In this document: positions 1 to 32,670 of the stretch, in pieces
Position numbering within the stretch: position 1 is the first letter of the stretch
How the letters are laid out: each line of letters opens with the position of its first letter
NCBI GenBank assembly: GCA_017499595.2
Contig: CM038998.1
Location: forward strand, 124,001 to 188,000
Reading direction: 5' to 3'
DNA length: 64,000 bases
From: Psilocybe cubensis
Lineage: Eukaryota
The notes under the pieces: model-generated
Seen by the model: only the letters and a program-made list of their open reading frames with translations
Database searches by the model: none
Told to the model about the DNA's origin: nothing
Position numbers and translations under genes: made by a program

Positions 1-3000
1 GATACGGTAGGGCACATTTGACGCATTGAGGACCCCGCTATTGCCTTCATGTACGTCCCAAGATGTATAAGATATCCGACCAACGCGATAACGGTTTGTA
101 TACATTGCCCGCGCGGGCACGGTTGTCACACCATACCGTAAAAATGCCCGAGTAATGTCCATCTTTAACACCACCGCACGTCGATCATCGTATGGGATGG
201 CTTCTTCTTGAAGATCTTCTTCGCTTTCCTCGTCGTCTGTCTCAGTGTCATCGTCGGCCTCAGCATTTGCGACATCGATTGTCTCTGCTTCTCCTGCGAG
301 TATGTACCGTCCTTGGGGCATCACCAACTTGCGAAAGATCGGCCAACAGTCCCGAATAGCTTGTGGACATCCTGGTCTTTGAAAAATTGCCATAAGTTTG
401 GACCTTCTGTGCCAGGAAGTCGCAATTGTTTCCTCGTACTCGCCTACTATAGATCAGTAACCATGAAAGAGCAGGCAACAGGTAAAGCAAATTACCTTGC
501 TTGTAATTTGTGGGAATTCTTTGCAGCATCCCAATCATACGTTCGAAGGGAAACGTCCACCAACCATGAACAGGCCCATATTCGATGATAAACTCCCTCA
601 TATGCATAGCCATATGATGATTAGGAACACACTGGTAGCTTGGAAACAGCCTTGAAAGCTCGGAACGGTATTGTACCATCAAATTCAGGTATTCATTGGC
701 CATAGCTGGTGATGCGACCCGGGAAGTGATGACAGATATGGCCTCAAAAAGAAGCATCGTGAGGCGCAAAAGTTCTCGACGTGTTTGGGCAGGTTTCGAA
801 TGGTCAATTCCCGACCATATTCGGATGAGGGTAACTGGGATGTAAAGTGCTGCCGCAATGCGCCATTGGTCTGATTTGAGTTTTCCACTCTTTGCGGACA
901 TCGACCAGGGTAACGACGAGACCCATGACGGTTTTACCATAGCTGCAATGTCTCGTCGGATGGATTTCATGTCTTCTGCTGTAAGTATCTTTCCCTGCTT
1001 GCCATCCACTTCTGAAGTAGCCTGGCTTGACTGTGACTGGCCGAAATTTTTAGTTGTTAGAAGAATTGAAAAATTTAACAACGTACGGATCTTTCTTTAC
1101 GCTATTCACCGCGTATTAAACTATCAGATTGATGTTGAGGTAACGACGATGCAGACGTACCCATTGAACAAGCATTTGGGCCAGATCTTCTTTCTTGACT
1201 CGCATCATACCATTTAACGTGTCCCGGCCACGATTGGTGATGGTAGAGGGTATACACCCCAGATGTTTACCAACAAAAACAAGGGCTTCTGCTGCGGTCT
1301 TCTTTGCCAACTCGTTTGCTACGTCGGCATCTTCGATTGGAAGAGGCTCTGCCAACCATTTTCTGATGATGCGTATTCCTTTTTGACCAGACTCTGAGGT
1401 TGGCAAAGGATTACTTTCATTGCCCTCAATGTTTTGTAATATAAAGCTATCGCTCGATATAGGTGTTTGTTGTTTCTTCTTCTGCTTGGGTAAATCAGAA
1501 CCGTCACCGAGAATGTGCTGAAAATGCTCTTTGATGAGTCCAAGAAAAAGGTTATGCATCGGGTCTACAACAAGGCTCATGGTTGGCCGATAATAGGGCA
1601 ATCGATGAAATTCTGACGTGCGCAATCCGGATTTGTCGAAAAGGCTTGCAGCGGCCTTTTCGGAGGGGGCTGCCTGGTATTTCCAGGCACCATCTCGACA
1701 TTCGTCATCGGTGCGCCATGTCCATTTTTCATAATCGAAGTTGTTGAATGTATGCACAGTTTTACTACACCAGCACATCGAACAGAAATATTCCTGATTG
1801 TATGAAGAAAATCCACCAGCCTTCCGTGCTGCAGGAAGATCGGCGATGATTGCAAGAAGAGCACAAAGAATAATGCGCCCCATAGCGTAAAGAGCGGTGC
1901 GCGTAAAAAAAACACCCACCCAAAACAGCAGGAAAGTGTCAACAATAGGGCGGAAGTATGGGTTTGCTGCTTCTAGACTGGGTTCATTGGGACCCGGAAT
2001 AATACCCGCGAGAAAGATGTTTTCAGGTTTATATCGAGTAGTTATGGGAAGGTTGAGGCATGTTAATGCGATAACTCCAATTGAAATCTTCTTTCCAGCC
2101 GTAAGATTACGCAAAGGATTAAAGAAATCAAAGCCGAGTGAAAATAGATAACGTCCAGTAGTTTCATTTCCGGATACACCGAAAAATTTCTTATCGCATC
2201 CCTTGAAGTTACGGATGCTGGAAGACTGAAAAATATCGTCCATGCGCCCATTTTCTTGAACAGGTTCGAACGTTTTCTTCCAAGCACCGTCCATTGCTTC
2301 CTCGTATCCTCGACGCGATAACATGCCACCAAGCCAGTCCTGGAAATCGAATGATAGGAAGGGTTTGATGGGTACATTAATGGTCTTATTGCTGTATCTC
2401 TTTGGCAGGACAAGAAGTTCCCCACAACGATTACCGAACTTCCGGGCATTGCATCGTTCGCGATAGGTAGAAATATCGTCCTCTAGGGTTGGCTTGTAGA
2501 TTTCATTGCACTTTGGACAAGCGGCATACACGATGAACTTCGAATCAATGTCAAAACGCTTGATTGCCGCTCGAACGTCTAGAGGAAACGAACGAAGAAC
2601 TTGCTCGAGCCAACGAGGAAGGATTTTGTCGACAAAGATAGCCTCTCCCGTTCTTTGAGCGATATATTCGCACATGGAAAAGACAAAATAGCATCCACGT
2701 CGAGGAAACCTCAATATAGCGTAGCAAGAAACAACCATAAGGTTGATCATCTGCATCGCGTCAATTATCCATGGGGGTAGCCAAGGCATACTGTATGCAT
2801 AGGGAAGGAAGGGAAGGAAGTGGTGCCCTAGGGTCGATAGTTGATAAATAGTTCATCGAATACAAAGTGAAAAATAAACATGCTCGCTCACTTGAATCGT
2901 ATAAATTAGGTACGCTATCCTGAATAGAAACTCGCTGGCGAGATCTCTTCGTTTGCCTCTCCTTCCATGTTGCCTCTACACGGTCTACATCTTCATTAAG

Positions 3001-3555
3001 TCGCTCGATATTTTGGTGTGCATCATGTCGCAAAGATTTGATCGAGGCTTCCTTGCGCAAAGGACCGGATTTCGTAAAGTCTAAATCTCTCGATGCGTTG
3101 GAATTAAGAGCTCGTACTTCATGGCAAAGTTGAATTGCCTTATCAATTTCCCCATTGCTGAAATATTTCTCTCCTGAGATGTCAATGGTGTTGATTTGTT
3201 GGGCACGAAGTCTGGTATTGTCTAGAATATCTGCAATCAGAGCCACGATTTTTTTCTTCTGTTCGTGCTTGTACTGCACTTCCTTTTCCTTGATCGTCTC
3301 GGTGTCCGGGTCCTGAACAGATAAAAGTTGCATTGCTTTCTCCAAGGTGGTTTCGACCTTCTCCATGGCCCTTTGCTGCTCAAGGATCGCCCGTGATTCA
3401 AGATTCCTCTTCATCTGACCCACGCTTTCCTCGTGTTGGTGCTTTTTATATGTAGATGGCGACAATTGAACACCTGGCTGTCCTGTGACAGGATCGCGTT
3501 TCGCGCCGCACCCATGCACAGTGCACAGGCAAAACTTGGCTTTCCAAACCGGCAT
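1..3555 (-). CDS. CACTA/EnSpm-family (Tnp2/Transposase_21-like) transposase, multi-exon, 3' end runs off the window
   Basis: ORFs 2761-3555, 1116-2789 and 260-1081 joined by introns. Motifs FSLGFDFFNP, SIGVIALTCLNLP..RYKPENIFLAGIIPGPNEP, DLPAARK, DPMHNLFLG, LKSDQWR, PNHHMAMH..YGPVHGWWTFPFERMIGMLQ are typical of CMC transposases; the frame continues to base 1 (..HEGNS..). Confidence 0.9.
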
Positions 3556-3847
3556 AGGTCTGTCGAATCAACCAGAATATCGATATCAATGTGGTAACGG
3601 TTAAGCAATGATAAGAGAAATTTTACCACATGAGAAATTATTATGCGATCACGCAGCTGCAGCTGCAGCGGAGGCAATGACCCGGAGGAACTCGATAAGG
3701 TGATGTCGCCGAAACGCCGAGGCATAACAAAGGGACTGAGCGATGAAAGACTAGCGTTTTCTTTTAAAGCGCTTGTTCAGGAACTTTCTTCATTACCCTC
3801 ACCTTCCAAACACCCAGCACAACTGAGTCTAGTCGTCCAACTAAACT

Positions 3848-5407
3848 ATGTCTCAACCTTCCAGGAGTCGTAGTAACAGCAAATCATCCGTAACAGGGGC
3901 TACCCCAATATATACCGCGATGCTTTCCCGCGAACACTATATAAAGGCTGTTAGCGCGAGATCAAGAAAGAACGCAGGGGTAAGTTGTCTAAGGATTGAT
4001 TGAGGCGCATTTTTCAATGATACATTACCTTCTGTTAGAAGTCTGCTTCGAGGCAACGCCGGTCTCCTGAAGCAGGGGACGCTAGCATGGTGGCAGGGCC
4101 ATCGAGATTCCAGGAAGTTGATGATGACGACATGGACCAATCCTTTGAATCCAATTCAACTGCGTTAGTCACCAACACCTTGACGTCCAACAAAACCCAG
4201 GCTGCGGTGCGCTTGAGTATAATGATTTATGTATTTCAATCTGACAGTACATACTTTCACCAGGGGAGTATTCAAAGGGCCTACACGGCCCCAATGGTCT
4301 CGTCCTTTGCCGAGAACCGTGAGGTTTCCACCGAAGGTCCATCGACAGAGATTGCGAATGTGTCGGTGGATGCTGGGAGAGACAATCTTATGACCAGACG
4401 TCCTCCTATACAGGTGGCCAACGTGAATGCTATATTAGCCATACTCCCAGGCCGGAATGAATTGTTTCCCGCCGTTCAACATAACCGATCTATTGCCAAT
4501 GGATCGTATGCAGCATCCACCAATGTCCAGAATGATCGAGGCATAACCAATCAACAAAGCGGAGTGGATGCTGGGATAGACCAAGTGATCATTAGTCAAG
4601 TACGCCACGATCATACGCCGTCGACTTTAGCACTAATCAACTACTTTCGATGAACAGGATGAATATGACAGGCTGAAGTCCACTTCAAATGCTGCAAGGT
4701 TGAGAAGTGATGATATAATAGCGACCGTAAGAATAATGAAATGATTCATAAGGAGGCGACTTACATCTGCATCCATTTTCCAGGTTAGAGAAGTTCAAGC
4801 CGACAGGGAGCGCATTGCCGCCCTTGAGCGAGGTCTAACCGAGCAGGGAGAGACGTTTAAATGGGTTAGTTTGGTTTCTTCCCTCACATAACCTTATGAC
4901 GTTTATCCGAGACCGTCACACTTTTTAAACAATTATATTATAGGAAATTGACAAAGCGAGCAAGATGTATACTGAGCTCTTGAAGGAGAAGGTGGCCCAG
5001 GAAAACCTGTACCTTGAAACGAAGAGGGTAAATTTACAATATGACCGATATCGATAATGTTAATGACAAATTTAAATAGGAAAATGACAGGTTGAAGGAG
5101 CTGGAAGAGACAGTACTTGGATTCGCAAAATGCACAATTTGCTATGAATTTATGGAGCAAATTTGCGTGTAAGCCTTTTCGAGAACTGTGTTTACAGATC
5201 AAAGTGACCTCAGAACATTATCACAGCTTTGCTTGTGGTCATGTTTGCTGCAACGATTGCAGGACAAAGCTCGAGTTATTTGACACACTGAGGTGCTGCT
5301 TTGTATGCCGCACATTTGTTCCAGATGAACAACCCCTCTCGCGTTACCATCCCCTCAGCCAGATTCTGTCCAATGTAAAGGATAAGGCTAATGCAGAGGG
5401 TGTTTAG
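3848..5407 (+). CDS. Multi-exon coiled-coil protein with C-terminal C3HC4 RING finger (putative E3 ligase), divergent from the transposase
   Basis: ATG 3848 (MSQPSRSRS..) followed by a GTAAGT donor. The last exons splice to CTICYEFMEQICV-FACGHVCCNDC..CCFVCR, giving C-x2-C..C-x-H-x2-C-x2-C..C-x2-C. Confidence 0.75.
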
Positions 5408-5551
5408 AGTAATCCTACTCCCTCTGCACGCTGCAGCTTCTGTTCGAGGTGATCATATAAGTATATAGCAAATGAAGAATGTCATGTTTCATACCAGAAT
5501 TTATATTATCTTCACAAGACGAGGTGATGGTAGAGAAATACCAAAAACAGG

Positions 5552-8500
5552 TCACAGTATCTTTTTCTTGTACTGGTCTTTTAACTGAGTCATAACATTG
5601 GAGTTGAGGTCTCTGTCTTTCTTGGACTCGGGAACTGAACACAGGAAATCCGTGCTGAGTATAAATCGCTCGCCAGTTAAAACGTCTACACGATCTTTAG
5701 ATCGGGTGACTACAGCGACCAAGACAGTTGGATTATCCGAGGTGCCTTCATGATGAATGCGACGAACGAATTTCCCGCAATGTTCCCCCTTGATAACCAC
5801 TAGAGGCCCATTGTCATGTATTCGATTTGCATACTTCGGAGTGACCCAAGCGGGGTCCACCATAGTCCATGAACTGTACTTTTTGCACCTGAGTACGAGG
5901 TTGTTTGCATCCCAAACCGTTGAGGCGACTAATGTTTTATTGCTGAACTGTCCGCCGTTGACTACCACATTCAGGCTGATGTCCACCAGTTTGGGGTTTA
6001 AGAGAACATGTTCGCACACAGAAGAGGAAGTCGTATGACAGTTTGTTTCAGATGAGGAGGAAACAGATGTAGAGACGTCTGATAACGCAAGACTTGTTGG
6101 CGAATGAGCAGTTGGGTCAGGTGTCCTTGAGGAGGGGTCCCAAGCTGGAGTGATAGATTGCGGTGTACCGATGGGTGTCCTTGAGGAAGGATCCCAGGCT
6201 GGAGTTGCAGTGGGTTCTGAGTACATCGGTGTGCCGCTCGCTGACGCAATCGTTTGCGGTACGCCAGGGAGAACGCGGACGTGCTTCATGGAAGACTTAG
6301 GTATAGGACGGAAAAATTTTGGCCCAGGATCAAGGAAAAGAACGAGCTCATTGAACGTCCTTGCGTACAAGTTAGACAGAGGGTACATGCAATGACAACA
6401 CACTTACAAAAGTTCGACGACATCGTCATAGTCCACAACGATTGTTTGGAACGGTGCAAAGGGATTAAAACGGGTGAGTTGAATAACGAGCTGCAGTCCG
6501 GCGTTGTCTGTATGATGAAGGACGTCTTTGATTCGTCCAGTCTCACCCTTGCGTGGGTGAAGATGCTTCTGTATAATGACCTCTAAACCAGTCCATGGGT
6601 GTCTTAAAAACTTGGTGTGGACTGGGTCTGACTCCGACAATAATGTCACATCGACAAGAGGTAGGGGCTCAGTAAATGAAGTGTCCAAGAGATTGACGTG
6701 TACCGCAAAATGCTGTTGAAAGGTATAGCCACGTTAAGAGAAAAACCGGTGAATATGTCAAGCTGCAAATTTACTCACTTCCACAATCTCAACCTTGTTA
6801 TCATCTCCTACCCCAGAATTAAACTGGTTAGATGCTGCTGTTGTACTGACCACAGCGCCCTGGTTGTACGACTCCTGAGCTGCTGTTGGTTTTCCTACTC
6901 CTGTGACACACGAACTCCCTCCCGGCATCGACATTTCTTCTTCATCTAACGTTGCTGCTGATTCATCCAAAGTTAGAGCGATATCCGAATGCACCATTAT
7001 ACCCCCTGGCATCATTTGCGCTTCTACCGCCGTCCCCAGATCTGTCTCCGCCGAACCTTTTCTCAGATCATCGTTCCCTGTCGGCACGGGATATTGTTCT
7101 TTTCCGTTGGTGGGCGTCGAAGATGTTTCAGCATTTGTTTCCACAATGGAAATGCGACCATGCACCGAACTTTTCGTTATTAGTGCATGGTCTCCATGGA
7201 TTCCAACGACCCAACCTCTGTGATCGAAATAGGGGCCGCTCACAACTCGAACGAATTGCCCGATTTTTGGTGACTTGAGAATGTCTAGCCATGTTCCCCT
7301 AACACTGTAGCGGATTTCACGTTCACCTTCGATTGTTGATTGTTCTGCTTCAACGTCGTATGTGTCCAGCTTTTTCAGCACTGCAGGTTCCCACTTTGCA
7401 GACCGATTCGCAACGTCGGGTGTACGAAAAAGAACCTCCTCTTCCAGTCCTAAGCACCATTCCCGAGGACGTGGCATACGCGCTCGCATTATGTCGGGAT
7501 GATTGGTGCTCCTAAACATGGAGAAGTGGGAATACGGAATATCCATGACGGAATTTGCGATGGAGGTATAGTCGAAATCCTTTTCCAACAGTCCATGGTC
7601 AAACTTGAGAAGTCCAAGCGTGTATGATCCATCCGCATTGCGAATAATGGGAGTAGAAATGAGTTTGCGGGCTTCTTCAGGGTCGAAAAGTTTTGCTGGG
7701 GGTACTAGTACCGATGACTTTCTCTTTTGTGACTTTGCAGATTGCGAATTTAGCCGAGGAATGAGAAGAACCTGAGCGCCCCAGGAAAAAGTCGCTGAAA
7801 TCAGTCCAACGTCTCCTTTGTATATGCCTTTCTTAACCAAAACCCAGGTCCCAACCTCAAAATCCTTCTTGACATCCCTCATCGTAAGAAGTTCGTGCTG
7901 ATGGTTCCGATCCACTATTTCGCGCTTGACTCCAAGGTGGTTACGAAGGATTCCGGGCGTGGACAAGAGCAGATTCACGAGGGCTGGATCCATGATACCT
8001 TCAACGTAGATACTTCCGCGTATAGAGCCGCGAGTAAATGCGGAACGAATATGGTGGATCTCCCTTGCGGTCTGGAGAAGGGATAGGACAGCTGCATCCT
8101 CAGAGCCGATCTGCAAAAGTTGATAGAAAAATAATCAAGGGATAGGTATTCAGACTTACCCGACATCCAACCCTCCAGAGAGGATAGTCATTCTCAAGCG
8201 GAAGACGCGCAATCTTCTCCTGGAGCATGGTTATCCTATCTTCCTCCTCCAAACGTATAACCGGACGTGGTTGACGAGGGCCCTTTGCTTGAGCCTCCAG
8301 GCGAGCCAGTAGTTGGTTAAATGAATCCTCCTCGCTGTCATCTTCTGGCCTATGGAACGCCATAGAGCCTATGTGATCTTCCCCGTCCACTTCCGCTCCG
8401 TCGTTAATGAAGGCATCTGTAAAGACAGTCAAATCAAGTCTATCGCAACATTCTGAACAGCTCGCCTTCAAGGTCCCGTTCTGCAGACGTAAGCTGCTCA

Positions 8501-8568
8501 TCGTCAGAAAGCTCTCCATCATCAGCTACCTGTGCCTCCGTGTCCAGAAATTGGCGGACGTTCCTCAT
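5552..8568 (-). CDS. Spt5/NusG-like transcription elongation factor homolog (divergent; acidic N-term, NGN, several KOW, TPAW repeats)
   Basis: N-term RQFLDTEAQVADD..FINDGAEVD; NGN-like LWRVGCR-IGSE..IRSAFTRGSIRGSIYVEG; KOW1 VGTWVLVKKGIYKGDVGLI..LIPRL..PPAKLFDPE; KOWs IGQFVRVVSGPYFDHRGWV and GLEVIIQKHLHPRKGETGRIKDV; CTR-like TPAWDPSSRTP x2; C-terminal KOW-like LVVIKGEHCGK. The start at 8568 is inferred. Confidence 0.8.
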
Positions 8569-9894
8569 AACCTAGGGAGAAAAAATCATGAGTATCAAGA
8601 TGCTTTGAACAGAAATCAAGCAAGCCTACCCGCTTCATCCTTTGGACTGTGTCGTTCGATGGAAATGAACAAATTTAATTAGATGATCAGTTACCACTCT
8701 GACTTAGGAATCGGAATCTATATGACGTTGGTGTGCTCAGTAAGTTTTTTTCATCTTCATTACGATGGTGATCTCATTTTCATTTTCCAACTATCCAAAT
8801 CTATCACTGAACTACGTGTAATAGTACATATTCTCGTTCCGGTTCAACGCCAATGCAGAATCCGTGGCGTATCTTACCTGGAATGACAGCCCCTGAGCAA
8901 CGAGGAGACAAAACGGTATGGTGGAGAGAAGAAGAAAAAGAGCGTGGGAATGGGTGGGGGGCTGTAGAAATGGCGCAGAAGTTCGATGCCGCAAATGCCA
9001 AAACATATCACGTGTTAATGTTCCTCGGGCATCCCGGGTGTGGATGAGGGTTCAAAACATTGAGAGCTGAGCGTCGTGCTGAAACTTATCAATGCGGAAG
9101 CGCTCATGTGAACACTTAAGCTCGTATCCTGTTAAAAATGCATGGTGAAACCTATTGTAGGGAACCTAGACGATGGAGCGACACGAAGTAGTCGGCTCGT
9201 CCTGAATGAAAAATTCATAGAAAATGGACATAATAAATTATTGACATGACCGTTGAGACAACTCATCCAGAATAAAATTTAGGGGCAGAACCAAGGGGCA
9301 CACCGTTAGTTCCATCAAAAACCAAGGCACAAGTTATGTATGGCGTACCCAGGTCTATGCTACCGCGAAACTAAGTATTTCGTTGCTTGCATATTCAAAA
9401 GTACGTACTACAGTTTACAAACAGTGGGAAATCAGCTACTCTACAAGAGTCTCAGGTGTTTGTATTTCCGAAGGAAAATAAGCACATTCAAATAATCTTG
9501 TAGTGAGCGGCGACCTTAGCATTTTGTGAGCCCAATAATTCGAGTATCAACGGTAGATATATTTGCGTGGAAAACGGTAAAAACAGACGAGGCCGTACTT
9601 CCAAGGACCCGCAGAAATAAGTTAAGGAGAACATCCTGGTGCATTGATCCAATCATGTAGATAGGGTCACCATGACACTGTAATAGAAGAAGCGCGGTTG
9701 TAAAAATACAGGGCCAAGTCCTCAATAACGAATATGTGAAACATACAAATTAGGCACCTCGTCGTCGAAGTCGACAGATTTGCGGGCCACGTTGCGGTGT
9801 CTACCACAACCTTTGCGATAATAAACATGGATAAGCTCGTACAGTTAGTGAGCAATGCAGAGCGGTGATGAAGCTCTACACATAATATGTCACT

Positions 9895-10224
9895 GAACAT
9901 CTCGTGTTCGGGAGAGTAAATTCGGCTTACAGTACGTGTAAAACAATACCTCACGGCGATTCGAGTTCGAGGGTGAAGTGGGCGCTGGGCAATGGCCGTG
10001 TTAGATTGTTGAACGAGATTTTAAACCACCCACTGGCAGGACAAAATGGGGTTGGAAAGTCACCGAAGATTATTATATCAAGTAGAGCTTGGGTTAATAA
10101 ATTTAGTATATCAATTGCAGATATTGATGAAGCGACATACTTCATAGATTGAAGAGAATTATTAGACGGGAACATCTCGCGTGTTCGAGAGAGTAAATTT
10201 GGCTTACAGTACGTGTAAAACAAT
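9895..10224. repeat. ~53 bp direct repeat (9895-9947 and 10170-10224), each containing a minus-strand GTAAGC donor-like site
   Basis: gaacatctcg(cg)tgttcgRgagagtaaattYggcttacagtacgtgtaaaacaat occurs twice. Confidence 0.85.
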
Positions 10225-20917: not shown

Positions 20918-22021
20918 ACAACCCCATACCTCGTTGTCTGCCCACTAGTCGGAGTCGGACCCGCGGAGCTTGTTGGGAGAGCGCGAAGCACCCCTCATTC
21001 TGCGCCTGAAATTCCTTCGAGATCGCTTAGTTTTGCGCCCCAGCCGCCATTGAACGCGCCTTGAGCGTTTGCTGTTCGCCGGCCAAGGATCCAAGTCCTC
21101 GTCTTGCTCGTCTTGTTCACTATTTTTTCCGTCTTCATCGTCGTTTTCGCGTCTACCATGGGTGTCACAAAATACAGCCCGCATCATTGAAATCTGTCAT
21201 CGCAAAGTTTTGTCATGATTTAATAAAATGATGTTCTAAAATACTTACTAGTTCTTTCAACTTTGCTTCGATCATTTGCTTCTGATTCTGATAGTCATTG
21301 TCATCACTGTGGTTATCGACCTGTAGGAATGATTAGTACGGATCAGCCACGAAACGATGACGATATGCTTCAGAATTACATCGTGGCCTTCCCTCGTCAC
21401 GGGCATCATGAAGTTTCTTACAGCAGGAAATATCGTACTGAGTACATATTAACCTATCGACCTTTTAAATGTTTTCTGAACAAAGATCCATCTTATCTTG
21501 TTTCTCTTTGTCGAAGAGTTATGGGAAAGGGGATAAAGATGGCATTGTCGCAGGAGCGCTTTGACATAGCAAACAATTCCAATGTCGCTCATGCAGCCAC
21601 GTAATCACGCCCTTTGGCGCCGTCATAATGACGATAAACGTTGTTATGGCGGTATGACCGACAGTGGATATTAAAACTATATATTATCCCATTGATCATT
21701 GATGATCTCCGCCAGTTGAAATCATGAAATCACCTTCCCAAAATCTCGCATTCCGGGGTAAGTGTGGGTATGTAGAAATACATGACCTTCTCTAGCTTCT
21801 ATATATCTCATTGGTAGGTCATTTTCTATGTTCAGATGGGTGTTGAGCGAATAAAGCGCTCATTTAGTTAATACCTTTGTCAAGATTGGTCAGGATATTT
21901 TGTCGCGGAGATTGCCTTTGTTCTTGCTTCTTATAAAGCGTCGTGAATCCTTGATTGCATACACCTCCATCGCAACTTACAGACTGCCCCAAACCCAGTT
22001 GTGGCACCTCTCATAGCAAAA

Positions 22022-22470
22022 ATGTTCAATAAAGCGCCACTTCCACTCATCACTCCGAGAATCGAATTTCGACTTTCTCAGCTCTCACCCCTATGTGTTC
22101 CGCGAAACCCTCCGGAAGAAATCAAGTTCATCCGACGCTCGCGGTTTCTTTCGCAACAGGGAGAACACTTGGAGGTGGATCACTCATTAATATTTTGGCC
22201 ATACCTCGCTGTAAGTGTTTTTCTTGATTGTCCTTACAAGTATCGTGACGAACATTCTCGTAGGTCAAGGATGCGTTAAAGAATGTGCTCTTTTCGTTCA
22301 AAGAAAAGGGAAATGCGAGTCCGTCGGCTGGAAAATCTGGGGGAACTCCTAAGTGTACGCGGGGTCATATGCCTGGATATTTTGAAGTCGATTATTTGGA
22401 TGGGATGCTGGAAGATTCAATACGGTATGAAAGCGGGGACTTATCTACCAGACTTCATTTTCTATTTTAA
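22022..22470 (+). CDS. Small two-exon hypothetical protein
   Basis: MFNKAPLPL..FWPYLA, then a GTAAGT..TAG intron, then VKDALKNVLFSF..LHFLF*; no recognisable domain. Confidence 0.35.
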
Positions 22471-22644
22471 ACTCATTTTCGGTGGATGGATCAATAACGT
22501 ATCATGAATGGAAACACTATTTTCTCTCCGCTGATAGCAAATACAGTTCTGACCTACGCTTCCGTATAATACTAGCACATGAATTGTGTCCATCATTTAA
22601 CCAATTTACATACGATACAACGCGCCGCATTTGAGGGACAGGAT

Positions 22645-23314
22645 GAAAGGCGTCACACCGTCACAAAATCGCCATGATACAGGACAGAAGTTTGATGCCG
22701 CTGATGCCGTGCCACCAATCACGCGCATCACCAATTTGGCGACGGCATGAGCGGCATCGAACTTCTGCGGTACTTGTTGGCGTGCTGGCCATATTCTCAC
22801 GCTTTCTTCTTCTTCTGTTCCAACCATGCTCATCTAGCGGGTGAAGTAGCACATATAGACCGAGTAGCGCTGCTATCCATGTAGGCAGTCTAGCGTAGTG
22901 TACCATGTAAATAATACAAATACTACTACAGGGAGCGAAATGGGGACCGAATGATATTGTGCGTGAGGTGTAATCGAAGTGCCAACACAGATGTTAAGCA
23001 CGTATGAGATCTCTACGCTCGCCGTAAGTAACACAATTTTCTGCACAGTGTTGTATATTGGGTCAGTCATTCAGCGCAGATACAGGTCAGCGAACAAGAC
23101 ATCGCAAAAGTTTCGAAGCATGTCTGGTAAGTCGCAACTCCAGTGTACCCGCCGTTTGCTAACCATGCGATTAGACGCACACGATTCTCACTCAAGTCGT
23201 TCGTTTCACCATTTCCTTCCTCTTGTTCTACACAGGTATGTTTCGTTCTGTCTACCTAATTTTCTGTAGTAACTTACATAGTATAGCCCATCTCCTATCC
23301 CGAACACTAACGAT
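22645..23314 (+). repeat. Third, partial (~670 bp) direct copy of the inverted-repeat arm (matches 10935-11604)
   Basis: Identical ORFs at offset 11710 (10951/22661, 11163/22873, 11269/22979). Confidence 0.95.
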
Positions 23315-23379
23315 TCCTACTGACATCTCTGGTTGGCTGCCACTTCACTTAGGCTACTTCTACAACTGTTTCACCTCCG

Positions 23380-23720
23380 TTTCGCGGCGGAGCGGCACAG
23401 AAAAGACGAGAGCATTGTCGTCCATGTGCGTCACCTCGCCAGGCAAAAGTCGTGCCCATCACGACGCAGTTCACTAGGACGCTCAGCGACATCTTTGGCG
23501 TGCTCGACTACTTAAGTTGGAGCTTGTTCACCGCTGCCTTCGACGAGGAACGCTCTGATTCTCTAGTGAGGTTGGCGTATGGTCTCCTCAGTGATCTGGC
23601 CAAATACTACTCGAACGGACGGCTTAAGCAGCATTCCTGTCCAATTGGCTTACATCAAACTGCGATCTGGAAGTTGTATTCCAGATGATACCATGAACAC
23701 CATGCCTCGGGCATGCGAGA
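23380..23720 (+). pseudogene. Degraded C-terminal fragment of importin-beta (karyopherin beta-1/Kap95-like)
   Basis: DEERSDSLVRLAYGLLSDLAKYYSNGRLKQ resembles the last HEAT repeat of fungal importin-beta; no start codon, frameshifted. Confidence 0.65.
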
Positions 23721-24039
23721 TTTTTCGAGGGTATTTTTTGTATCCTTTCCCTCTTACTTACGACTTAGGCTTAGGGACTGCGGACAGTGACGTTAGACGG
23801 GTAATTCGGCGGCTTTTACAACAATTATTTTTCTCCCTGTTGTTCGTATTATAGCTGTTGCTACAATCTGGCTAGGAATATTGCCATGCATAACAGTGTG
23901 GACGTCTTTTCCATGGGAGAATCCGCGTACGTACTCATCCGGGATCTCAATCTAATATCCACTTCTGATAGCTTCCTCTATCGATAGAATTCGCTACGAA
24001 GCCCCTGGGCCGCCATCCAACAGCATTTTTTCTCCAAGG

Positions 24040-24430
24040 TTTCTTCACATCCGGCATGGTTAGCGCCCTCGGCAGACATATTCACCGGCCTGATCATCGC
24101 ATCGCTCATTGTACTCATCTTCGTTGCCGTCTTCCTCCTCCGTGAATGGATGTCGCAGAATGCTCGCCTGGGCGTATTCGAAGAGGAAGAGCTCCCCGAT
24201 CTGCCCCCCGTTCACGCGCCTCCACCGCAACCACAACTGCAACATCAACCCAGGCTCGTCCGCCATTTTGCGCCGCTCGACCCTGCCAGCCTGAACCTTG
24301 AGCGTGGAGGGAACGCGCCGCTTTCAATGAGCGTCAGATCGAGGCTCTACGTATGGAGGCAATGCGTCAGAATCTGGACACAAACATCGCCGTGGACCCC
24401 AACAGATGGCGAGCAGACGCCCAAATAGCC
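24040..24430 (+). pseudogene. Internal fragment of Doa10/MARCH6 ERAD E3 ligase
   Basis: In frame with ORF 24150: SHPAWLAPSADIFTGLIIASLIVLIFVAVFLLREWMSQNARLGVFEEEE, matching the conserved D..G.II...V..F...FL.REW segment of Doa10; no RING-CH domain and no rest of the gene. Confidence 0.75.
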
Positions 24431-25420
24431 GCTCTTAGGGATAGGAAGAAAAAGATGAATGCCAAAAGCTTCAACCCACATCATACGGTACGCGATGAAA
24501 ACCAGGGAGAAACGGACCAGGAGGATGTACAATTTGAATTAGAGCAAGCGAGGAAGAAAAAATTCAACCAACATGTTACAGTGGCGCAGGACGGGGACGA
24601 GCCTGGGTTAGTAAGTCCCAGCGAATCGGACGATACAGAGGATGATGAGGACGATTTCCATGAAGACGATGAAGTCGACAATGAGGGACATGGGCATGGA
24701 AACGGGCGTAGACATCGACGTCCACATCCTCTCCGACGGCCTCATTTCGAAGAAGAAAAAGACGACGAAGACGACGAGGAAGACCAGGCAAAGTTGTGCA
24801 GTGGGGTGCTACCACCACCACCAACCCCTTTTTGCGGGTTTTCGATTCAACTGTTGACTCTTTGTTTGACTTTGCCTTTCGATCTGAAGCGGGGAGAATG
24901 GCGTGGTATACCCACTGCCCACTTACACCTACACCAACACCGTTTATCGACTATCGACCTTCACATTGGCTTTTGGTTTGCCAACCCAGTTTGTGTTCTA
25001 CGGTTACACCCTACGCCTACACCGACGCTGACACTAGCGCCTCAGCTCATCTTACCTCACACCGACTTGCAGTACGCTCTGAACATCTTACACTGTTACA
25101 CACCACATATCACACCATAGCATAGCATATCTTACACAACACCCACCAGACAAACTCGAATTCCGACTTATAAACCCAAACCCAAACACGAAATCAAGAC
25201 GAAATGAAAGCACTAGACACGAACCTGTACACTCCCATCATCTCATCATCTCATCGTGGCGCTTTTGGTTTTCCCCACTGTATGATGTCTGCGTCTACTT
25301 TAACCATTCACTTCGTCCCGCCCACACCGACGTCATCGTCGTCGTCTTCATCCGCTGCATCGTCCGCGTCGCTATCCACGCTGCCGACATCGTCGAATCC
25401 AACCCCCGCTCGTCGACTCT

Positions 25421-25456
25421 CACCACCACCACCACCACCACCACCACCACCACCAC
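25421..25456 (+). repeat. (CAC)12 microsatellite within a low-complexity Pro-rich gene fragment
   Basis: Direct reading. Confidence 0.95.
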
Positions 25457-27789
25457 CCGCGCCGATCTTTCTATCTCTACCACCACCACCACGGCCGCCG
25501 CGCACCTACTCCCATGCACCGACCACCATCACCTGTGATAACAAACACGACACTGCACACACCAGCACCCACACACAACCTCACGCTCATACGCACCGCC
25601 GCGGAGCTCATCGAACTCGACGTGAAACTGCGCAGTACGCACCCGGGCCTCAAAATCCCATCGCTGCCCATCGACCCCGCCGGTCTGCCCCTCGCGCAGC
25701 AGAAGAAGGGGAAGGAGAAGAAACGAAAGTCGACGTTTTTGAACACGCTTTCGCGGCTGGCGTCGCCTGGGGGTGGCAAGGGGATGGGGATGAGTATGGG
25801 CATTGGGATCGGGAAGAAAGGGGGGAATACACCGCTTGTGATGGCTCCTGCCAAGTAGGGCCCGGATCCGTTTGGCTCGTTTGGTGCGATGACGCTTAGT
25901 TGGAGTGTTAGTGGGAGTATTGGAGGGGATGTGAATGGGTGGTCTGCCGCGCCGTCCATGACGAATCTAGCGTCGACTGCGTTGTCCACTGACGCGCTTG
26001 ATAGGGATGGGGTCATCTCGACAGACAGAGAGAAAGAGGACTATTGATCACCCGGAAGGCGAGGACGCTCATGGTCGTGTGGCCGGCGGTATTATCGAAG
26101 AGGATGAAATGGAGGTGGAGAATGTTAGCTCGCAACGTCAGCAACATCTGGCAAAGTTGAATAATGCACTCAAAACGACCACCATCATCGGCGGCCTATA
26201 GGACGCGCGCGGGTTCATGCGCGTGCGGCTTGATGAGGTGAGGCAGAAGATGGACGCCGAGGAACAGGCGAGGGATGTGTGAGTGTTTTTTTATTTTATT
26301 TTTTTATTTCTTTCTTTCTTTCTTTTCTGGTTTTTGGGGTTTTTTGTTTTTGGAGTGTGGTTTTTAGAGAGTATGTTTTTTGGATTGTTTTTTTTGTGGG
26401 TTTATTTGGATAGATTTCGGTGGAATGGACAGATTCCAGTTTCGGAGGTTCTCTATTCCATCCATCTTGCAGAGGTACTTTGAACGAGCACGGTTCTGGT
26501 TCTTGTTCATGTTGTTGTTTGTTCGAGGGTGTATCCTTCGCCTTCGTCTTCATCTTCGCATAGATCGTTTTGGCCGATGCATGCATGTACGGGTTGATTG
26601 ATACGGGTGGATAGATGGTTCAGGACGGATAGCAGGATGGATAGAAGAACCGTCGGATGGGCTTTTGCTTTTACTTTTATTTTCTTTGCTTTTATTGTAT
26701 CCCATTCTTTTTTATCCTATTCTATTCCCATTCTTATCTCTAATTTTCTAAACACAACTAACACCCCTTTTCCTCTTTTCCCTCCCTTCCCCTACACTTA
26801 TTTAACTTACTACAACCTACAAGCCTCCGCACTCAATTCACCCAAACACACGAAGACATCGCAACATCCTCCTCGCGCTGCTCCCGACGCTCTCGGAGCA
26901 GGTGCTGCGCGCGATGGATGTGGATGCGGTGAAGCGGGAGTTGCAGGCACGGTCGCGGGTGGGTAAAGGGAATAGGGAGCAGCAGGTGTTGGGGATTGGG
27001 AATGGGAATACACCAGCACAAGCACCGGCGAATAAGAGGAGTGTGTACCCACTTGCACCGTACCCTTCCACTCCACCTCCGCCCCAGCCTCGTCAAACGC
27101 CTCCACAACAGGCTCAGGCTCAGCCCCAGCCTCATCAAACGCTTCACGCACCTGCTCACCATCACCCACACCAGCGCCCGCACCGTTCACACTCTCGCCG
27201 CCCGCACCCGTGTTCGTGCCGCGCGCCGCGTCGTTGCATTCCGCGTCGTTGTACCCGTTCGCCTGTTTCTTTGCACTCGCCGTACCTTTCGCTTTCAGGG
27301 ACAGAGTCAGAGTCTATTTCCATCTCGCACGACACGCAGGAGATATCGTCGTCGTTTGTATCGGACAACGGGTCTGTGAGTCGTAGTTGGGTCGTTGAGG
27401 GTTCGGGTGAGGGTTCCGAACAAGGAGGTGCAGGGGAGAGAGCGCCATCGCCTGCTTTGAGCTCTGTTTCTGGTGTTTCCCGTTTCGCATTCGAATTCGA
27501 CGGATGAAGGGGAAGGTGGGGATGAAGATGAAGATGGTACGTCACTTCTCTTTCGTTGTGGGAGTTTGATTTTATCTGATTAAGAAATGTGTATATGTGT
27601 AGGCAGAGAATGTGATTAGTGTGTATACGGACACTGATGCGGATGCTGTTGCGGTTGCGGATGCTGGAGCGGGAGGATCGGGATCGGATCGGGAGGAGCG
27701 GGCGTAGATGCGTTGATCACCTTCGCAGTGCCCTCCGATTCCCACAGTTCTCTTGCTGTTACTTGCGCCGGGCAGGGAAGTAGATCCAG

Positions 27790-28000
27790 TGCCCGGACTA
27801 GGTCTCTCAACCATCCTAACTATCGCTCTCCGGGGAGGGATGTCGTAACGTAGTACTAGGATTAACCGCCTATATTTAATGGGAAGTACTCCTGTTTCAG
27901 AATAAAGAACTGCCGTTATCGACCTCGGACCCAAACCCAGTATTCGTCGCAGACACTTGATCTGCACCTGTTCCAGGAGTCGTAGCAATGACCTGCGATC
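27790..28000 (-). mobile_element. LINE (non-LTR) ORF2 fragment, region C-terminal to the RT
   Basis: LLEQVQIKCLRRILGLGPRSITAVLYSETGVLPIKYRRLIL is the typical post-RT segment of fungal LINEs. Confidence 0.7.
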
Positions 28001-28057
28001 GCTCCTTCTGTAAGTTCGCATATTGTCTGCGCTTTTTTGTTCGAAGCTGAATTTTGG

Positions 28058-28240
28058 AGCAGCTGGTGTATCCACACGACTGGCGCGAAGATGACTTTGT
28101 GGTCTTCCACAACCGTGGAGTTCTGCACACTGTCGTCGGTGCATGCCCTTGACCAGGTGCGCGCGTTCCACCAGTGCAACCTCGCTGCATCGGATGAGCC
28201 CATGGGCCCTTCAGCCGAAGACGTCCAAACCTATGCTTGA
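28058..28240 (+). pseudogene. C-terminal fragment of TauD/TfdA-family (XanA xanthine dioxygenase-like) enzyme
   Basis: LVYPHDWREDDFVVFHNRGVLHTVVG, then a frameshift, then DQVRAFHQCNLAASDEPMGP; N-terminal HxD part absent. Confidence 0.7.
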
Positions 28241-28499
28241 GTTAAGGCGGGTAATTTGCAAGACTTTCGTAGTCAATGGCATACCATTCCTCGATGTCTG
28301 GGTCGTGTCGTTTCCTCAGCATTTCTTGGAGCCTGAATTCCCCGTACCTTGTCAAGATTGATCATCCCACTTGGGGAGGATATAGACACAGATGTTCCCG
28401 CTGGCATCGTCAAAGTCTATCGTGTGTTAATTGTATTGCCAAATAATAGACAGAGAAAAACATACTGCAAGGGTTATTAAAAAGTTGAGAGGAGATGTA

Positions 28500-29334
28500 C
28501 CATCGTCGGCTTGCCGATAAGCAAACAGGGAAGACGAGCATTGGGAATATCTTCATTGGTATGTAATTCTTTTCTCTTGCCGCGAAGGTGTTGAGCTGAT
28601 GTCATCTTTTAATTACTTGCGTATAGCCGGTCTTGGGGCTGGAGTGACGGAAGCTGTTGCCATCGTGACGCCCATGGAAGTGGTGAAGATTCCTCTGCAA
28701 GCTCAACAACATTTATTGGCCGATCCTCTTGAAGCGCCTCGGTACCGTAATGCTGGTCATGCTGTGTACACCATCATTCGTGAGGAAGGAATCTCGACAT
28801 TGTATCGTGGTGTCTCTTTGACGCCACTGAGACAAGCTACGAATCAGGGTACGTCTTCATTCGTGAATAGCCGAAGAACGCCTTTCTTAAGGCTTGTGTG
28901 TCCACCTTAGGTGCCAACTTCACCGCGTACCAAGAAATCAAGAAGCTCGCGCATAAGTACCAGCCAGACTTGGTCGAGCTACCATCCTACCAACACATGA
29001 TGATTGGTCTTATCTCTGGAGCTATGGGTCCGTTCTCAAATGCACCAATAGACACTATCAAAACTCGTACGTCCCTTTTTAACTACACTTTCTTAGCCTC
29101 TCTTACTCAAATCAATTATATCAGGTCTACAAAAAGCCAAAGCAACTCCAGGCCAATCCTCCTTCCAGCGCATATTCGCGATCGCGGCAGATATGTGGAA
29201 GATGGAGGGCGTGCGGTCATTCTACAAGGGCATCACCCCCGCGTGCTGCGCGTGGCACCCGGGCAGGCGATCGTGTTCGCGGTTTATGAACGCGTGAGCG
29301 GCGTTATTGAGATGATCAGCCCAAGAGTGAGAGA
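28500..29334 (+). pseudogene. 5'-truncated, frameshifted mitochondrial succinate/fumarate carrier (Sfc1/Acr1-like), introns retained
   Basis: GLGAGVTEAVAIVTPMEVVKI.LQAQ..ADPLEAPRYRNAGHA..IREEG, RQATNQGANFTAY, GAMGPFSNAPIDTIKTR, RVAPGQAIVFAVYE; 1 bp frameshift at FYKGITP/RV (~29240); GT-AG introns present. Confidence 0.85.
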
Positions 29335-30415
29335 AGATCTCATCTCCACATGTATCCCTGCATGGTCATCCACTCTTCCTCCAACCCATGTTATCTCCAT
29401 GGCTTCCAACGACAGGAGCGCGTCTTCCGAGACGATGATGTAGTCAATGACAGAGCGGCCTCCGTTGGCCTGACTGGAGGTCCACTGTGGGAACGGCGTT
29501 CGGTCGATTGGTGTCCCATTCACGACATGCAGAGAATTCTGCCCCATGATTTCCAGTAGGCGATTCCCTCTAGCAATGCAGGTATTATCTGGAGACACTC
29601 GTACTAAGTGCGATCCCGCTGCTTGTTGCAGGCCTATACGCGCGTTCAGGTCGCCTATAATCATGTATGCCTTGGATCGCAAGACACAAATATTCGATAG
29701 CCTCCCCCAGCCATGTCTTAGGGTCCACATGCGTCCAAGATTCCCATCTGGAGTTCTCTGGCACAAGATACGAGCAGATTAGGATTAGGGATGGGAGCTC
29801 AAGGACCAGTATATCTGGGTGCATGATCTCGTCGCATATTCTATATTTTACAGTGTCCCGTATAATTACAGTGACGCCGCCCAGGGGGTGCCGCCATGGT
29901 CGCGATCGTGCCACTGGATGAAAACCGCGAGGTAGATCCAGAATATCCTCTTGCCCTGGCGCCATGTGTGTTTCCTGGAAGAAGGTAACATCATTAGATA
30001 GTACGAGATCCCTATACATTGGCGTATGGATTGATGCCGCGAGTCCTCCGTTGCAGTTCCAGGAGGCTACGCTGAATCTGGCGCTGTTTGTTTCTATCAG
30101 TGCCCGATGTGTGGAACCCGTCATCGCCGCTCTGCTGTTTGCGTATGCCCTGAAGTCCTGCGCATCCGCATACACCCGAAATCGGAGCCTGATGCGTCTC
30201 GCTTTCCTGGCATGCGTAACTGATACCAAACGTTCCATAGCTAGCCCATTGTCCTGCATCCATTCTCGCCCCATCCGCAGACGCTCAATTCTTTGGCATT
30301 GTAGTGGCCCCCGGAGAACATCTGTAAGATTGACGTCTCTTTCTTGCTGAGTTGCTTGTGTTGACGACATGCGTGGTGTGATTTCTGTTAGGACCGCTGT
30401 GAGTGGAGTTTCCAT
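29335..30415 (-). mobile_element. LINE APE-type endonuclease domain (frameshifted, RT missing)
   Basis: SVASWNCNG, FFQETH, GGVTVII, ICSYLVP, IIGDLNARIG, SVIDYIIVS and DDH motifs split over ORFs 29585-30415 and 29284-29766. Confidence 0.85.
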
Positions 30416-31099
30416 GATAAGAAGAATTTGTTTTTGGTGATGGTGCGTGTTTTATCTCTTTTTTTTTCCTTTTCTTTTTTTTACTTCTTTCTCTATGTGC
30501 GTGTTTTTATTGACATTGACAGTCTTTTTTTTTTCAATAGGATACCTTCCTGGACACGGAACCCGTACTGGGAGAGTTCACAGAGGAGGATCTCGAGCAG
30601 GAGCAGGATACCTACCAGAAGCCGCAGACGGACGCGGACCGCACGGATGGCGAAGGGTACGAGACAAACACGGCGCCGTCGCAGTCGCGCAGCTCGTCGA
30701 TACGCATGGTACAGAGTCAGAGTCAGCTGCAGCAGGGACAAGGGCAGGACTGAGTCAGCAGGTGCCGGTGCAGCAGGTATCCAAACGGCAAACGCGCGTT
30801 AATTTGCCTCTAAAGGTGCTGACGACGCTTGTTTGGTAATAAAAAAAATGTTGTTTCAAGCTTCATGAAATAACATAGGCCACAGATGTCCGCGAATGTT
30901 AAGGAGTTTTATTATTCAGAAATGAGATTATGAGTCTTCAATGAGTATGATACAAATATAGCGAATCAAATGGTAAAATTCAGGGATATATGTACAATAA
31001 TACGAAGCGATAGCGATAAACCGAAAGCAACAAGAAAGCAACAAGAAAGCAACAAGAAAATGAAGAAAAGATAACAACAAGAAAAACCCGCCGGGGCGC

Positions 31100-31643
31100 C
31101 TAGTCGGTGCGGACAGGAGCGACATCGTATGTCTCGCACATTGCGAGATACAGGGCTCGCGCAGGGTAGGTGGCACGTATTTGGGCCTCGATCGCGATAT
31201 CGTTGAGAACTTTCTTGCGCTCAAGTTCGAAGCGGTCGAGCTGAATTTCGTGCGCTTCCGATGTACCAGGCCGAGTACGTGCGCTTCGATTGTCGAGAAT
31301 TTTTTTCAGGGTTTTAATCTCCTGGCGAACGCGGATGAGTTCCTCGAAATCGGCGTCGTTGGCTGGTGAGTGTTGAGCCTCCATGTCGCTGATCAACTTT
31401 CCTCCTGAAAGGAGCGGTAAGACGCTGTTCAAAGCTACAAATACTCACTGGCATACCGCTACGATTTCGCAGAACAACTGGCGCTTCGCTATTTTTGTTG
31501 ATGTAGCGAGCTATCGCCCCGAAGGCGGGCCCTCCGTACGTGCATAACCACTCCACGATCTCGCATCCCGACGCGAATCCGTATTTGATGCCGTTGACGA
31601 AGGAAACGATGGTGGAAAAGATGTTGGAGACTATTGTGGACAT
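31100..31643 (-). CDS. Hypothetical two-exon small protein near the element's right end
   Basis: MSTIVSNIF..RSGMP with a GTGAGT donor, then ORF 31100-31432 (helical); acceptor uncertain. Confidence 0.35.
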
Positions 31644-32264
31644 GGTACGAATATCGATGTTGATAGAGGGCGTGATGAGCGAGGACGATGAATGAATGTG
31701 TTTGAGCGAGTGAGAGCGAGTGTGGTGAGTGTGGTGAGTGAGTGTGAGTGAGTGTGGTGAGTGAGTGGGAGTGTGGTGAGTGATAAGAGACTGCGAGAAA
31801 GTTGTTCTGAGAGACATCAATTCATAGAAGGCAATGGCAAACGATGGCAAACGAATAAAATACATTGATGTGAGTATATACATTGCTACTACAGTGAAAT
31901 AGAGACTCAGGTTCTAGAAATAAGAAGGGAGAAAAGCAGCTTTGACTGTGTAGCATTTGTCAATTTATGTGTATGGTAGTAGGACACACCCGAGCCCCAA
32001 AAATACATATATTTCACTCGAAAATACGTTTTTTCTCGCTGAATAAACATGCGTCACTGATACAGCGTTATTGAATGAAGAGCGTGTTCTCGTCGCTGAA
32101 TACACAAGCGCCTAAGTAGCGTTGGTGAGGTGTGTCGCTTATCACCGAGACGCCAAAATAGCCGTAAAATCGCTGGGCGTGTCGCTCAACGCGCGCCGAT
32201 CGCGCGTCAAGCGCGCGCTGATCGCGCGAGGAGGCGCGCGCTGAGCGGCACGATGAGCGTGTCG

Positions 32265-32670
32265 ATGTCTGTTTGACAATCTGTTTGATTTCAAACAGAT
32301 ATTATGTTTGATTTCTTACACAACTTATGTTTGATGTTTATGGTCGATAACATACAGAATATACGGATGATTTCATGCACAAATTATCAAACAGGAGTTA
32401 TATTTGGAATCAAACACTATTTATCAAACACAATGTACGTTTGTTATCTTACAGCGAACTTGACAGATTTTCTGTCAAGCCCGTGTTCTTTGACAAACAG
32501 GCGTCAAACATACGTTGTGTTTGATATCACATGCCTATCAAACATAACTTATGTTTGATGCTTGTTTGTCAGCAAACACAACTTATGTTTGACATCAAAC
32601 ATCGTCTTCTTACATAATATGTGTTTGATTGACGATGTTTGACATCAAACATGTATCGGAGCCCGCAGTG
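32265..32670. repeat. Subterminal repeat array (TGTTTGA/TCAAACA in both orientations) ending in a CACTG-type terminus
   Basis: More than 15 copies of the heptamer in both orientations in ~400 bp, ending gatgtttgacatcaaacatgtatcggagcccgcagtg; GC-rich CGCGCG-repeat block just upstream (32185-32250). Confidence 0.85.

Follow-up and report, generated by a model that had tools for sequence, protein, structure and literature searches.

A multi-copy CACTA/EnSpm-type transposon in Psilocybe cubensis with a right end placed to the base and a putative Spt5-like accessory gene

How far does a transposon reach when only one of its ends lies within the DNA at hand? The question is raised by a stretch of 64,000 nucleotides from the genome of Psilocybe cubensis (assembly GCA_017499595.2, contig CM038998.1, positions 124,001 to 188,000; referred to as the window), in which the initial annotation had described positions 1-32670 as a single giant, cargo-carrying CACTA-type element whose right end can be placed to the base. 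We consider it probable, with some reservation, that 1-32670 represents the greater part of a single copy, inserted in an intron, of a CACTA/EnSpm (Tnp2) family with recent activity, and that this copy runs through the whole of the window up to that end. The right end at 32670, the repeated character of the DNA from at least 20950 to 32670 and the presence of several flanks for one terminus were observed in public sequencing data. The continuity of 1-32670 as one unit is suggested by its gene content and by the arrangement of genes in its relatives.

The right end is defined both by its letters and by a change in sequencing depth. The window reads ...GGAGCCCGCAGTG followed directly by GAA, with the predicted terminal CAGTG present at 32666-32670; the terminal inverted-repeat end (32661-32670, minus strand) reads CACTGCGGGC inward, or …GCCCGCAGTG on the plus strand. 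The 18-mer CACTGCGGGCTCCGATAC has a single occurrence in the whole window, and a motif search over the same DNA found no second CACTGCGGGC and no second subterminal array. Logan contigs of four public runs from three studies were placed on 20950-36950: X1, which is source-like, X5 and X9, which carry a second organism label, and X8, which carries a third. Summed contig k-mer depth is not a copy number, a caveat of the tool itself, and the ratios given below are taken as indications only. Contigs of all four runs put the border between repeated and single-copy DNA exactly between 32670 and 32671. Depth in the bin 32164-32697 was 320, 1114, 323 and 601 (X1, X5, X8 and X9, respectively), then stepped across 32697/32698 to 15.9, 88, 14 and 30 in the next bin; at the border itself, some 10-20x falls to 1x.

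Contigs that pass 32670 do so into mutually unlike flanks (five, five, two and four contigs in X1, X5, X8 and X9, with an agreement of about 0.5), and the same end therefore abuts several different flanks. A single-copy X1 contig (record 7, depth 15.9) spans 36950-32641 and ends 30 nt inside the element, as it should, because a unitig with k=31 is expected to break at the border of a repeat. In X8, record 19 (4273 nt, depth 14.1) matches the window from 35998 down to exactly 32671 and continues for 944 further letters that fit nothing in 20950-32670. Most simply, this contig is an allele without the insertion, a probable empty site of the kind that the initial annotation had proposed to seek in other strains. 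The three nucleotides that flank the element are GAA on the right, the side visible in the window. The depth border and the unlike flanks in four runs bear out the placing of the right end to the base and, with the PF02992 match described below, the assignment to a multi-copy element of CACTA/EnSpm type, which is also polymorphic between runs.

Inside this end lies a subterminal array of TGTTTGA/TCAAACA (32268-32652, both orientations). Within 32001-33000 we counted 17 of the 27 sites that this motif has in the window. The two-orientation array already noted from the sequence is also apparent with ATGTTTGA, for which 9 of 11 window sites fall within 32304-32652, five on the plus and four on the minus strand; the total of 11 was reached in none of 100 shuffles. 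Direct and inverted short subterminal repeats characteristic of CACTA elements were thus found at the right end, the one that was tested. Other short repeats occur in the neighbourhood: a CGCGCG-rich cluster of short palindromic repeats stands just inside the array (32160-32260), and a (GAGTGAGTGTG)n-like microsatellite is found at 31703-31783, 0.9 kb from the element end, in an area where X5, X8 and X9 have a 35-nt deletion variant (31711>31747).

The transposase gene lies at the opposite edge of the window. This Tnp2 (Transposase_21) gene occupies 1-3776 on the minus strand, with its 3' end past the window start. Its open reading frame (ORF) 1116-2852 (minus strand) matches PF02992 Transposase_21 with an E value of 4.8e-9 and 36.2 bits (cut-off 28.6) and has DUF1258 as its only other Pfam match. 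Exon-like blocks were delimited by tblastn of long relatives at 3537-2881, 2846-1152, 1039-494 and 444-1. Of the 629 residues of P0099, a protein of P. cyanescens, the alignment covers those up to residue 542 by the time it arrives at window base 1, and the gene therefore runs past the left edge. A total of 117 relatives were found at E<=1e-3, the best of them 53% identical and most of them PF02992-bearing; they are agaricomycete Tnp2/DUF4218 proteins of Mycena, Psilocybe, Grifola and Pisolithus, together with proteins from many unnamed contigs. The Tnp2-type transposase proposed at the outset is well founded on this match and these relatives. In alignment A1 the window ORF matches all 71 invariant columns, by construction, as one of the 20 rows.

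Relatives of this transposase also inform the form of the ends. Alignment A1 served to fetch 80 metagenome Tnp2 loci, 41 of which have at least 1900 nt downstream, and their shared terminus is CACTGC(T/G)GG. The sequence ...CCNGCAGTG occurs in 14 of the 41 loci, 1798-2517 nt past the position of Tnp2 residue 565 (numbering of the window ORF), and this 9-mer occurs in the other orientation in none of the 41. The ten terminal bases of the element in the window recur unchanged, as CACTGCGGGC, at the ends of four loci (L060, L062, L064 and L065), and L053 terminates with an ATTCTGC/GCAGAAT array and CAGTG. Applying the Tnp2-to-terminus spacing of the relatives here places the predicted left end 0.64-1.36 kb outside the window, before base 1, and the element would then measure 33.3-34.0 kb in all. 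Locus L069 carries, beside its Tnp2 relative, a 427-bp miniature inverted-repeat transposable element (57-483; CACTGCTGGC...GCCAGCAGTG) with GAAACAC/GTGTTTC arrays; it belongs to the same terminus family and is non-autonomous.

The repeated DNA behind the right end includes a distal mosaic segment (23591-32163) of low-complexity ORFs and gene fragments, at about 10x depth in X1. Depth over 23620-32163 was about 129-180 in X1, against 15.9 in the flank, and about 4-5 times that of the flank in X5, X8 and X9; the segment is GC-richer (0.50-0.55). X1 contigs of 0.7-2.9 kb with depths of 141-155 differ from the window by only 0-3 letters. These near-identical repeated contigs and the 98.8-99.9% identity among the Spt5-like proteins described below suggest recent activity. 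Among the differences between the window and X5, X8 and X9, changes of the types C>T and G>A are over-represented (in X8, for example, 85 C>T and 108 G>A vs 45 T>C and 33 A>G), a skew that X1 does not show. The skew could reflect methylation-linked decay of older copies, in counts that pool flank and element differences.

Captured fragments of host genes, as claimed for this element, were recovered from the mosaic as partial matches in repeated DNA. ORF 26806-27507 (plus strand) matches Pex3 in Pfam over profile positions 63-142 of 458 (80 positions), and the four neighbouring ORFs have no further Pex3 match. Proteins of the mitochondrial carrier family have three Mito_carr repeats, of which Pfam finds two here (28521-29443, plus strand). 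Pieces resembling a long interspersed nuclear element (LINE) were identified by Pfam and by reading at 27572-28210 and 29284-30451 (both minus strand): the endonuclease ORFs have weak matches to Exo_endo_phos and 'Endonuclease-reverse transcriptase', and ORF 27572-28210, as we read it, resembles the C-terminus of a LINE ORF2. X1 contigs of single-copy depth match the Pex3 area piecewise (26452>26735, 26957>27169, 27229>27342 and 27473>27598) and would represent the parent Pex3 gene elsewhere in the genome. In one more X1 contig of single-copy depth, 26143 is followed directly by 30403, so that 4.26 kb are missing from this variant. We also considered a small terminal element beside native genes, with the Pex3, mitochondrial-carrier and Exo_endo_phos matches at 24-31 kb belonging to the latter, and rejected this because the segment is repeated and the matches are fragmentary. 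Host-gene fragments in a multi-copy element, with the parent genes located elsewhere, are what defines DNA transposons of the Pack type, and the element described here follows this pattern.

The left 21 kb contains a second set of genes that recur with the transposase. The companion gene region (13220-17906, plus strand) comprises a coiled-coil part and a conserved C-terminal domain (17043-17903), and ORF124 (12738-13109, minus strand) encodes 124 amino acids. When all 291 window ORFs of at least 70 amino acids were compared by tblastn with the 80 loci, the only element ORFs to match besides pieces of the transposase were the companion C-terminal domain, in 17 of 80 loci, and ORF124, in seven. 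A second element-encoded protein, another hallmark of CACTA elements, is thereby represented by the companion domain, whose conserved motifs are displayed in alignment A2. In 11 of the 17 loci the companion shares the strand of Tnp2 and lies 1-5.7 kb (mostly 1-2.5 kb) upstream of it; in L053, L047, L043 and L055 the two genes are on opposite strands, with the companion about 8 kb upstream. Along the transposase, the order companion (minus), ORF124 (plus), Tnp2 (plus) is the same in the window, L053 and L047, and the companion/ORF124 pair has the opposite orientation in L002 and L050. Neither gene has a Pfam match that names a function. What had been annotated as a coiled-coil gene stands as a conserved gene, with weak Pfam matches (E about 1e-3) for the coiled-coil character. 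A protein-cluster atlas places the companion and ORF124 only in basidiomycete clusters of hypothetical proteins, where PF26792 (DUF8263) is found in 19-25% of members and offers a lead. The coiled-coil part contains internal tandem duplications (within 14078-15976 and 13574-13730), with units of 177 nt at 94-98% identity (14560-15649) and 78 nt at 97% (13574-13730), which are recent.

The divergent companion and ORF124 genes form a 6.2-kb module (12345-18554) enclosed by an inverted repeat found by repeat search and blastn. The left arm (9979-12344) and the right arm (18555-20920) are each 2366 nt long and identical at 2364 positions (99.915%, blastn). A partial third copy of 684 nt (22631-23314, 99.3%) is in direct orientation to 10921-11604. 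Inverted repeats also surround the companion/ORF124 pair in L053 (about 64-633 and 8356-8947, 92-97%). The repeat-flanked module may be able to invert and be homogenised by recombination, or it may stem from a recent duplication.

Between this module and the transposase lies a gene for an Spt5-like protein of about 940 amino acids with NGN and KOW domains (5555-8571, minus strand), delimited from UniRef identity, the mapping of the protein P0118, domains and structures. The earlier call of an Spt5-like gene is upheld: ORF 6758-8134 is 100% identical to UniRef A0A8H7XNP3 of P. cubensis, and both domains are detected (KOW, E 1.2e-7; NGN, E 2.3e-5 with the full protein). The first ~460 residues of P0118 match solved structures of Spt5 (S. 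pombe, E 1.4e-17) and RDM3 (8hyj_W, E 2.2e-11), and its C-terminal half (about residues 460-948) has no match among solved structures. A 90% identity cluster holds ten P. cubensis proteins (P0118 and P0122-P0130) that are 98.8-99.9% identical. Five distinct copies lie on five contigs (3.05-4.68 Mb) of one NCBI assembly, in agreement with the ~5x depth of 20950-22665 in X1 (83.8 vs 15.9). A further P. cubensis paralogue, P0119, is 74% identical over the window ORF and 77% over the full protein.

The gene is also found with Tnp2 elsewhere. In P. cyanescens, CVT25_015172 (Spt5-like, 41%) and CVT25_015171 (Tnp2/DUF4218) share one contig of 14830 nt, and the gene model of the former starts with a homologue of ORF124; P0120 residues 13-117 match ORF124 at 50% identity (E 2.5e-29; 50% over 122 amino acids). 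Among the Tnp2 loci, L002 has weak Spt5-like matches (E about 1e-6) 2.5-3.5 kb downstream of Tnp2. Judged from these associations, the NGN-KOW protein appears to be an accessory gene tied to Tnp2 in at least three lineages. Counted in representative clusters, its family is large, with 97 of them at E<=1e-30, rising to 335 at E<=1e-10 and to 898 at E<=1e-3. Eight of 10 long members gave Pfam matches, all eight to NGN and/or KOW, and none of the 10 is a fused Spt5-transposase gene model. The database label 'Transcription elongation factor SPT5', which denotes the housekeeping protein, is probably a mis-annotation when applied to the transposon copies, and one that propagates from database to database. 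Nearby, the RING gene of the initial annotation is reduced to a small Cys/His-rich ORF (5096-5407, plus strand), RING-like at best: it has a weak zf-RING_5 match (E 0.037; 14.4 bits, below the cut-off of 27.9) and no match in the 80 Tnp2 loci.

Beyond the right end, single-copy depth and a hand reading of splice sites reveal what appears to be an interrupted host gene (32671-33620, minus strand). It has an ATG at 33620 and retains eight short exons. The last of these (32748-32714) is followed by a donor GTAAGC and by 43 nt of intron (32671-32713) up to the element, exactly the length at which the initial annotation had the gene broken off. Strict splice patterns in an automatic search yielded 24 models, of which none contains every motif read by eye. 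The DUF6534 label proposed for this gene, with which our own reading agrees, could not be confirmed by any tool: seven exon-bearing ORFs gave 0 Pfam matches, as would be expected if the domain lies in the missing 3' half, and a search with ORF 32797-33057 found no homologues, probably because the exons are tiny. The element thus appears to sit in an intron of a host membrane-protein gene whose family name is not confirmed. Further into the host flank we noted a TPR_10+CHAT gene (36362-39547, plus strand; E 1.7e-38 and 1.6e-30), eight paralogous segments of P-loop (GxxGxGKS) type in partly duplicated units of 4.0-4.4 kb (43269-59165), and a WD40 gene (57719-58642, plus strand), of which ORF 57719-58639 matched four Tnp2 loci over a short stretch of 40 amino acids. 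This flank looks like an NLR-like (nucleotide-binding, leucine-rich repeat) or variable gene cluster.

Does the transposase on the left belong with the terminus on the right? The left 21 kb is taken as element-like because the companion and ORF124 recur beside Tnp2 relatives in the order seen in L053 and L047, and because the Spt5-like gene is multi-copy and stands beside Tnp2 in P. cyanescens. That all of 1-32670 would be a single unit is supported by the lack of internal termini and of any clearly native host gene in this interval, where about 50 ORFs searched in Pfam gave matches that were fragmentary or related to transposable elements. Several observations weigh against this reading. Neither the left end nor the remaining part of the host gene lies inside the window, and for 1-20950 the evidence on copy number and contiguity comes from protein clusters and from synteny with distant relatives. 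Synteny is itself imperfect, as the window companion is 13 kb from Tnp2 and on the other strand, unlike in 11 of the 17 loci, and Spt5-like homologues are present in L002 and in none of the other 79 loci. The ends of the relatives are also variable: arrays are strong only in some of them (L053, L037 and L054), and the top 7-mer in the last 450 nt occurs at least nine times in two of 14 ends, five times in one and two to four times in 11. No relative was recovered with both ends: a search for the partner inverted repeat of 15 right ends found none, and the 11-13.6 kb upstream in L043, L053 and L075 hold no partner end. Finally, depth is uneven along 20950-32670 (about 5x, 19x, 10x and 20x), and its step near 23.3-23.6 kb could mark the junction of two different repeats; this step adjoins the partial arm copy at 22631-23314, which could mediate rearrangements.

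This last observation leads to the alternative that we take most seriously, although we consider it unlikely: the terminus and the distal 9 kb (about 23.3-32.67 kb) would be a truncated or non-autonomous derivative that abuts, or has recombined with, another copy or other repeats. X1 depth indeed rises from 83.8 (20950-22551) to about 150 (23620-32163), with the arm fragment (about 300) in between, other copies diverge at loose ends (22631, 23150, 23314, 31816 and 31855), and the contig that joins 26143 to 30403 demonstrates that structural variants exist, for which the direct repeats 10921-11604 and 22631-23314 could provide the substrate. The depth pattern, however, fits long copies accompanied by deletion derivatives equally well, and the arms themselves account for the loose ends at 22631 and 23314, where arm sequence is present. 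A second element would moreover need a missing end, as no other terminus motif or array exists in 1-32670, and Pfam found no single-copy host-like gene between the two parts among the ~50 ORFs. A more sceptical explanation is that CAGTG is no transposon end at all, and that a segmental or subtelomere-like duplication, or an assembly artefact, happens to stop there. Assemblers can create structures such as the near-perfect inverted repeat of 2366 nt, and our evidence consists of k-mer contigs rather than long reads. Yet the border coincides to the base with the terminus of Tnp2 relatives and with the two-orientation array, every one of the four runs, which come from three studies, has two to five unlike flanks at the same end, the X1 reads contain the junction (record 7, 32641-36950), and the inverted-repeat architecture recurs in L053, an independent relative from a metagenome. 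We regard this explanation as very improbable. More improbable still is a giant cargo element moved by a Starship-type tyrosine recombinase or a KDZ/Plavaka transposase, with the CACTA parts as passengers. Large size and many genes would suit it, and two distant Tnp2 relatives, P0045 and P0055, carry PF18759 in their precomputed annotation. But the mobile border is a CACTA terminus, and the scanned ORFs (at least 75 amino acids; the left edge is outside the window) had no Pfam match to a tyrosine recombinase, to the Starship captain domain DUF3435, or to KDZ or Plavaka, the transposase ORF itself matching only the two domains named above.

If 1-32670 is indeed most of one CACTA/EnSpm copy, its parts would be ordered, along the direction of the transposase, as an upstream terminus with its array, a 9-kb mosaic of gene and LINE fragments, the partial arm copy, the 6.2-kb module between 2.4-kb inverted repeats, the Spt5-like gene, the Tnp2 gene and a downstream terminus. 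In En/Spm, the subterminal repeats are bound by a second protein that the element encodes, which joins the ends. By analogy, the Tnp2 DDE transposase would cut at the CACTG ends, and the companion protein is a candidate to bind the subterminal repeats and pair them. Transposition would be of the cut-and-paste type and would leave a 3-bp target duplication, predicted to be GAA. The family would consist of a few long copies together with internally deleted derivatives that keep the ends, a picture that fits the depth of about 20x over the terminal 0.5-0.85 kb, 10x over the distal 9 kb and 5x further inside. The Spt5-like protein may help RNA polymerase II to transcribe the element or to escape silencing on it, a role that would parallel the one suggested for TET/JBP genes on fungal EnSpm elements (PMC12730594, available portion). 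A module able to flip would explain why both orientations occur among relatives (L002 and L050 vs L053, L047 and the window). The fullest version of this scenario remains doubtful in our view: an autonomous CACTA element of about 33 kb, recently active in P. cubensis, with its own Spt5-like factor to drive or protect its transcription and a flipping module, belonging to a large unrecognised family.

Comparison with known systems tempers the likeness to Starship and KDZ cargo elements, which was overstated: the 'cargo' consists of fragments, and the intact additional genes are accessory genes associated with the family rather than host cargo. Starships are not known outside Pezizomycotina. The available part of a description of Starships (PMC11162782) shows resemblances in size (tens of kilobases), in the presence of many genes, in mobility and in polymorphism between strains; the element described here differs in that no captain was found, in its CACTA-type end with an array and in its basidiomycete host. 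The closer parallel is with plant En/Spm. According to the portion of PMC8978399 at hand, these elements share with ours a Transposase_21, a terminus of the CACT(A/G) type, a second ORF of unknown function, subterminal direct and inverted repeats over several hundred nucleotides and the capture of host fragments. The present element has CACTG rather than CACTA ends, a basidiomycete host, an extra Spt5-like gene and a module between 2.4-kb inverted repeats, and its companion protein has no likeness to plant TnpA detectable with Pfam, where it has no match.

CACTA/EnSpm elements have expanded in Agaricomycetes (PMC5751038, accessible section). Fungal EnSpm elements with a TET/JBP dioxygenase have CAC..GTG termini, which the right end described here resembles, and 3-bp target duplications, which are predicted for the present element, and their accessory gene, which other transposons also carry, is thought to help them escape silencing; the accessory gene is an NGN-KOW Spt5 paralogue here, and 'Spt5' occurs 0 times in that article (PMC12730594). 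Our literature search found no described fungal CACTA element of this size and structure, no specific study of Psilocybe transposons, and nothing that joins Spt5 with CACTA/EnSpm elements or with transposases in Agaricomycetes. Fragment capture and accessory genes are already known for CACTA/EnSpm; what is new is the size, the presence of an Spt5 paralogue and the module between inverted repeats. Several strains of this mushroom have been sequenced, and a DNA transposon in it that is well bounded and, it appears, still mobile could serve studies of transposition, of polymorphic insertions and of gene disruption in basidiomycetes.

Other fields are likeliest to take an interest in the transposon-linked Spt5 paralogue. 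Specialised Spt5 paralogues with NGN and KOW domains, separate from the housekeeping factor, include plant SPT5L/KTF1 (RDM3) and a development-specific, meiosis-specific Spt5 of ciliates (PMC5416832, as far as its accessible text goes). Unlike these, the paralogue described here is carried on a DNA transposon, and its role is a predicted one. On bacterial mobile elements, paralogues of NusG occur. If the fullest version of the scenario above, which we hold to be doubtful, is true, the Spt5-like gene of this Psilocybe element would be their eukaryotic counterpart.

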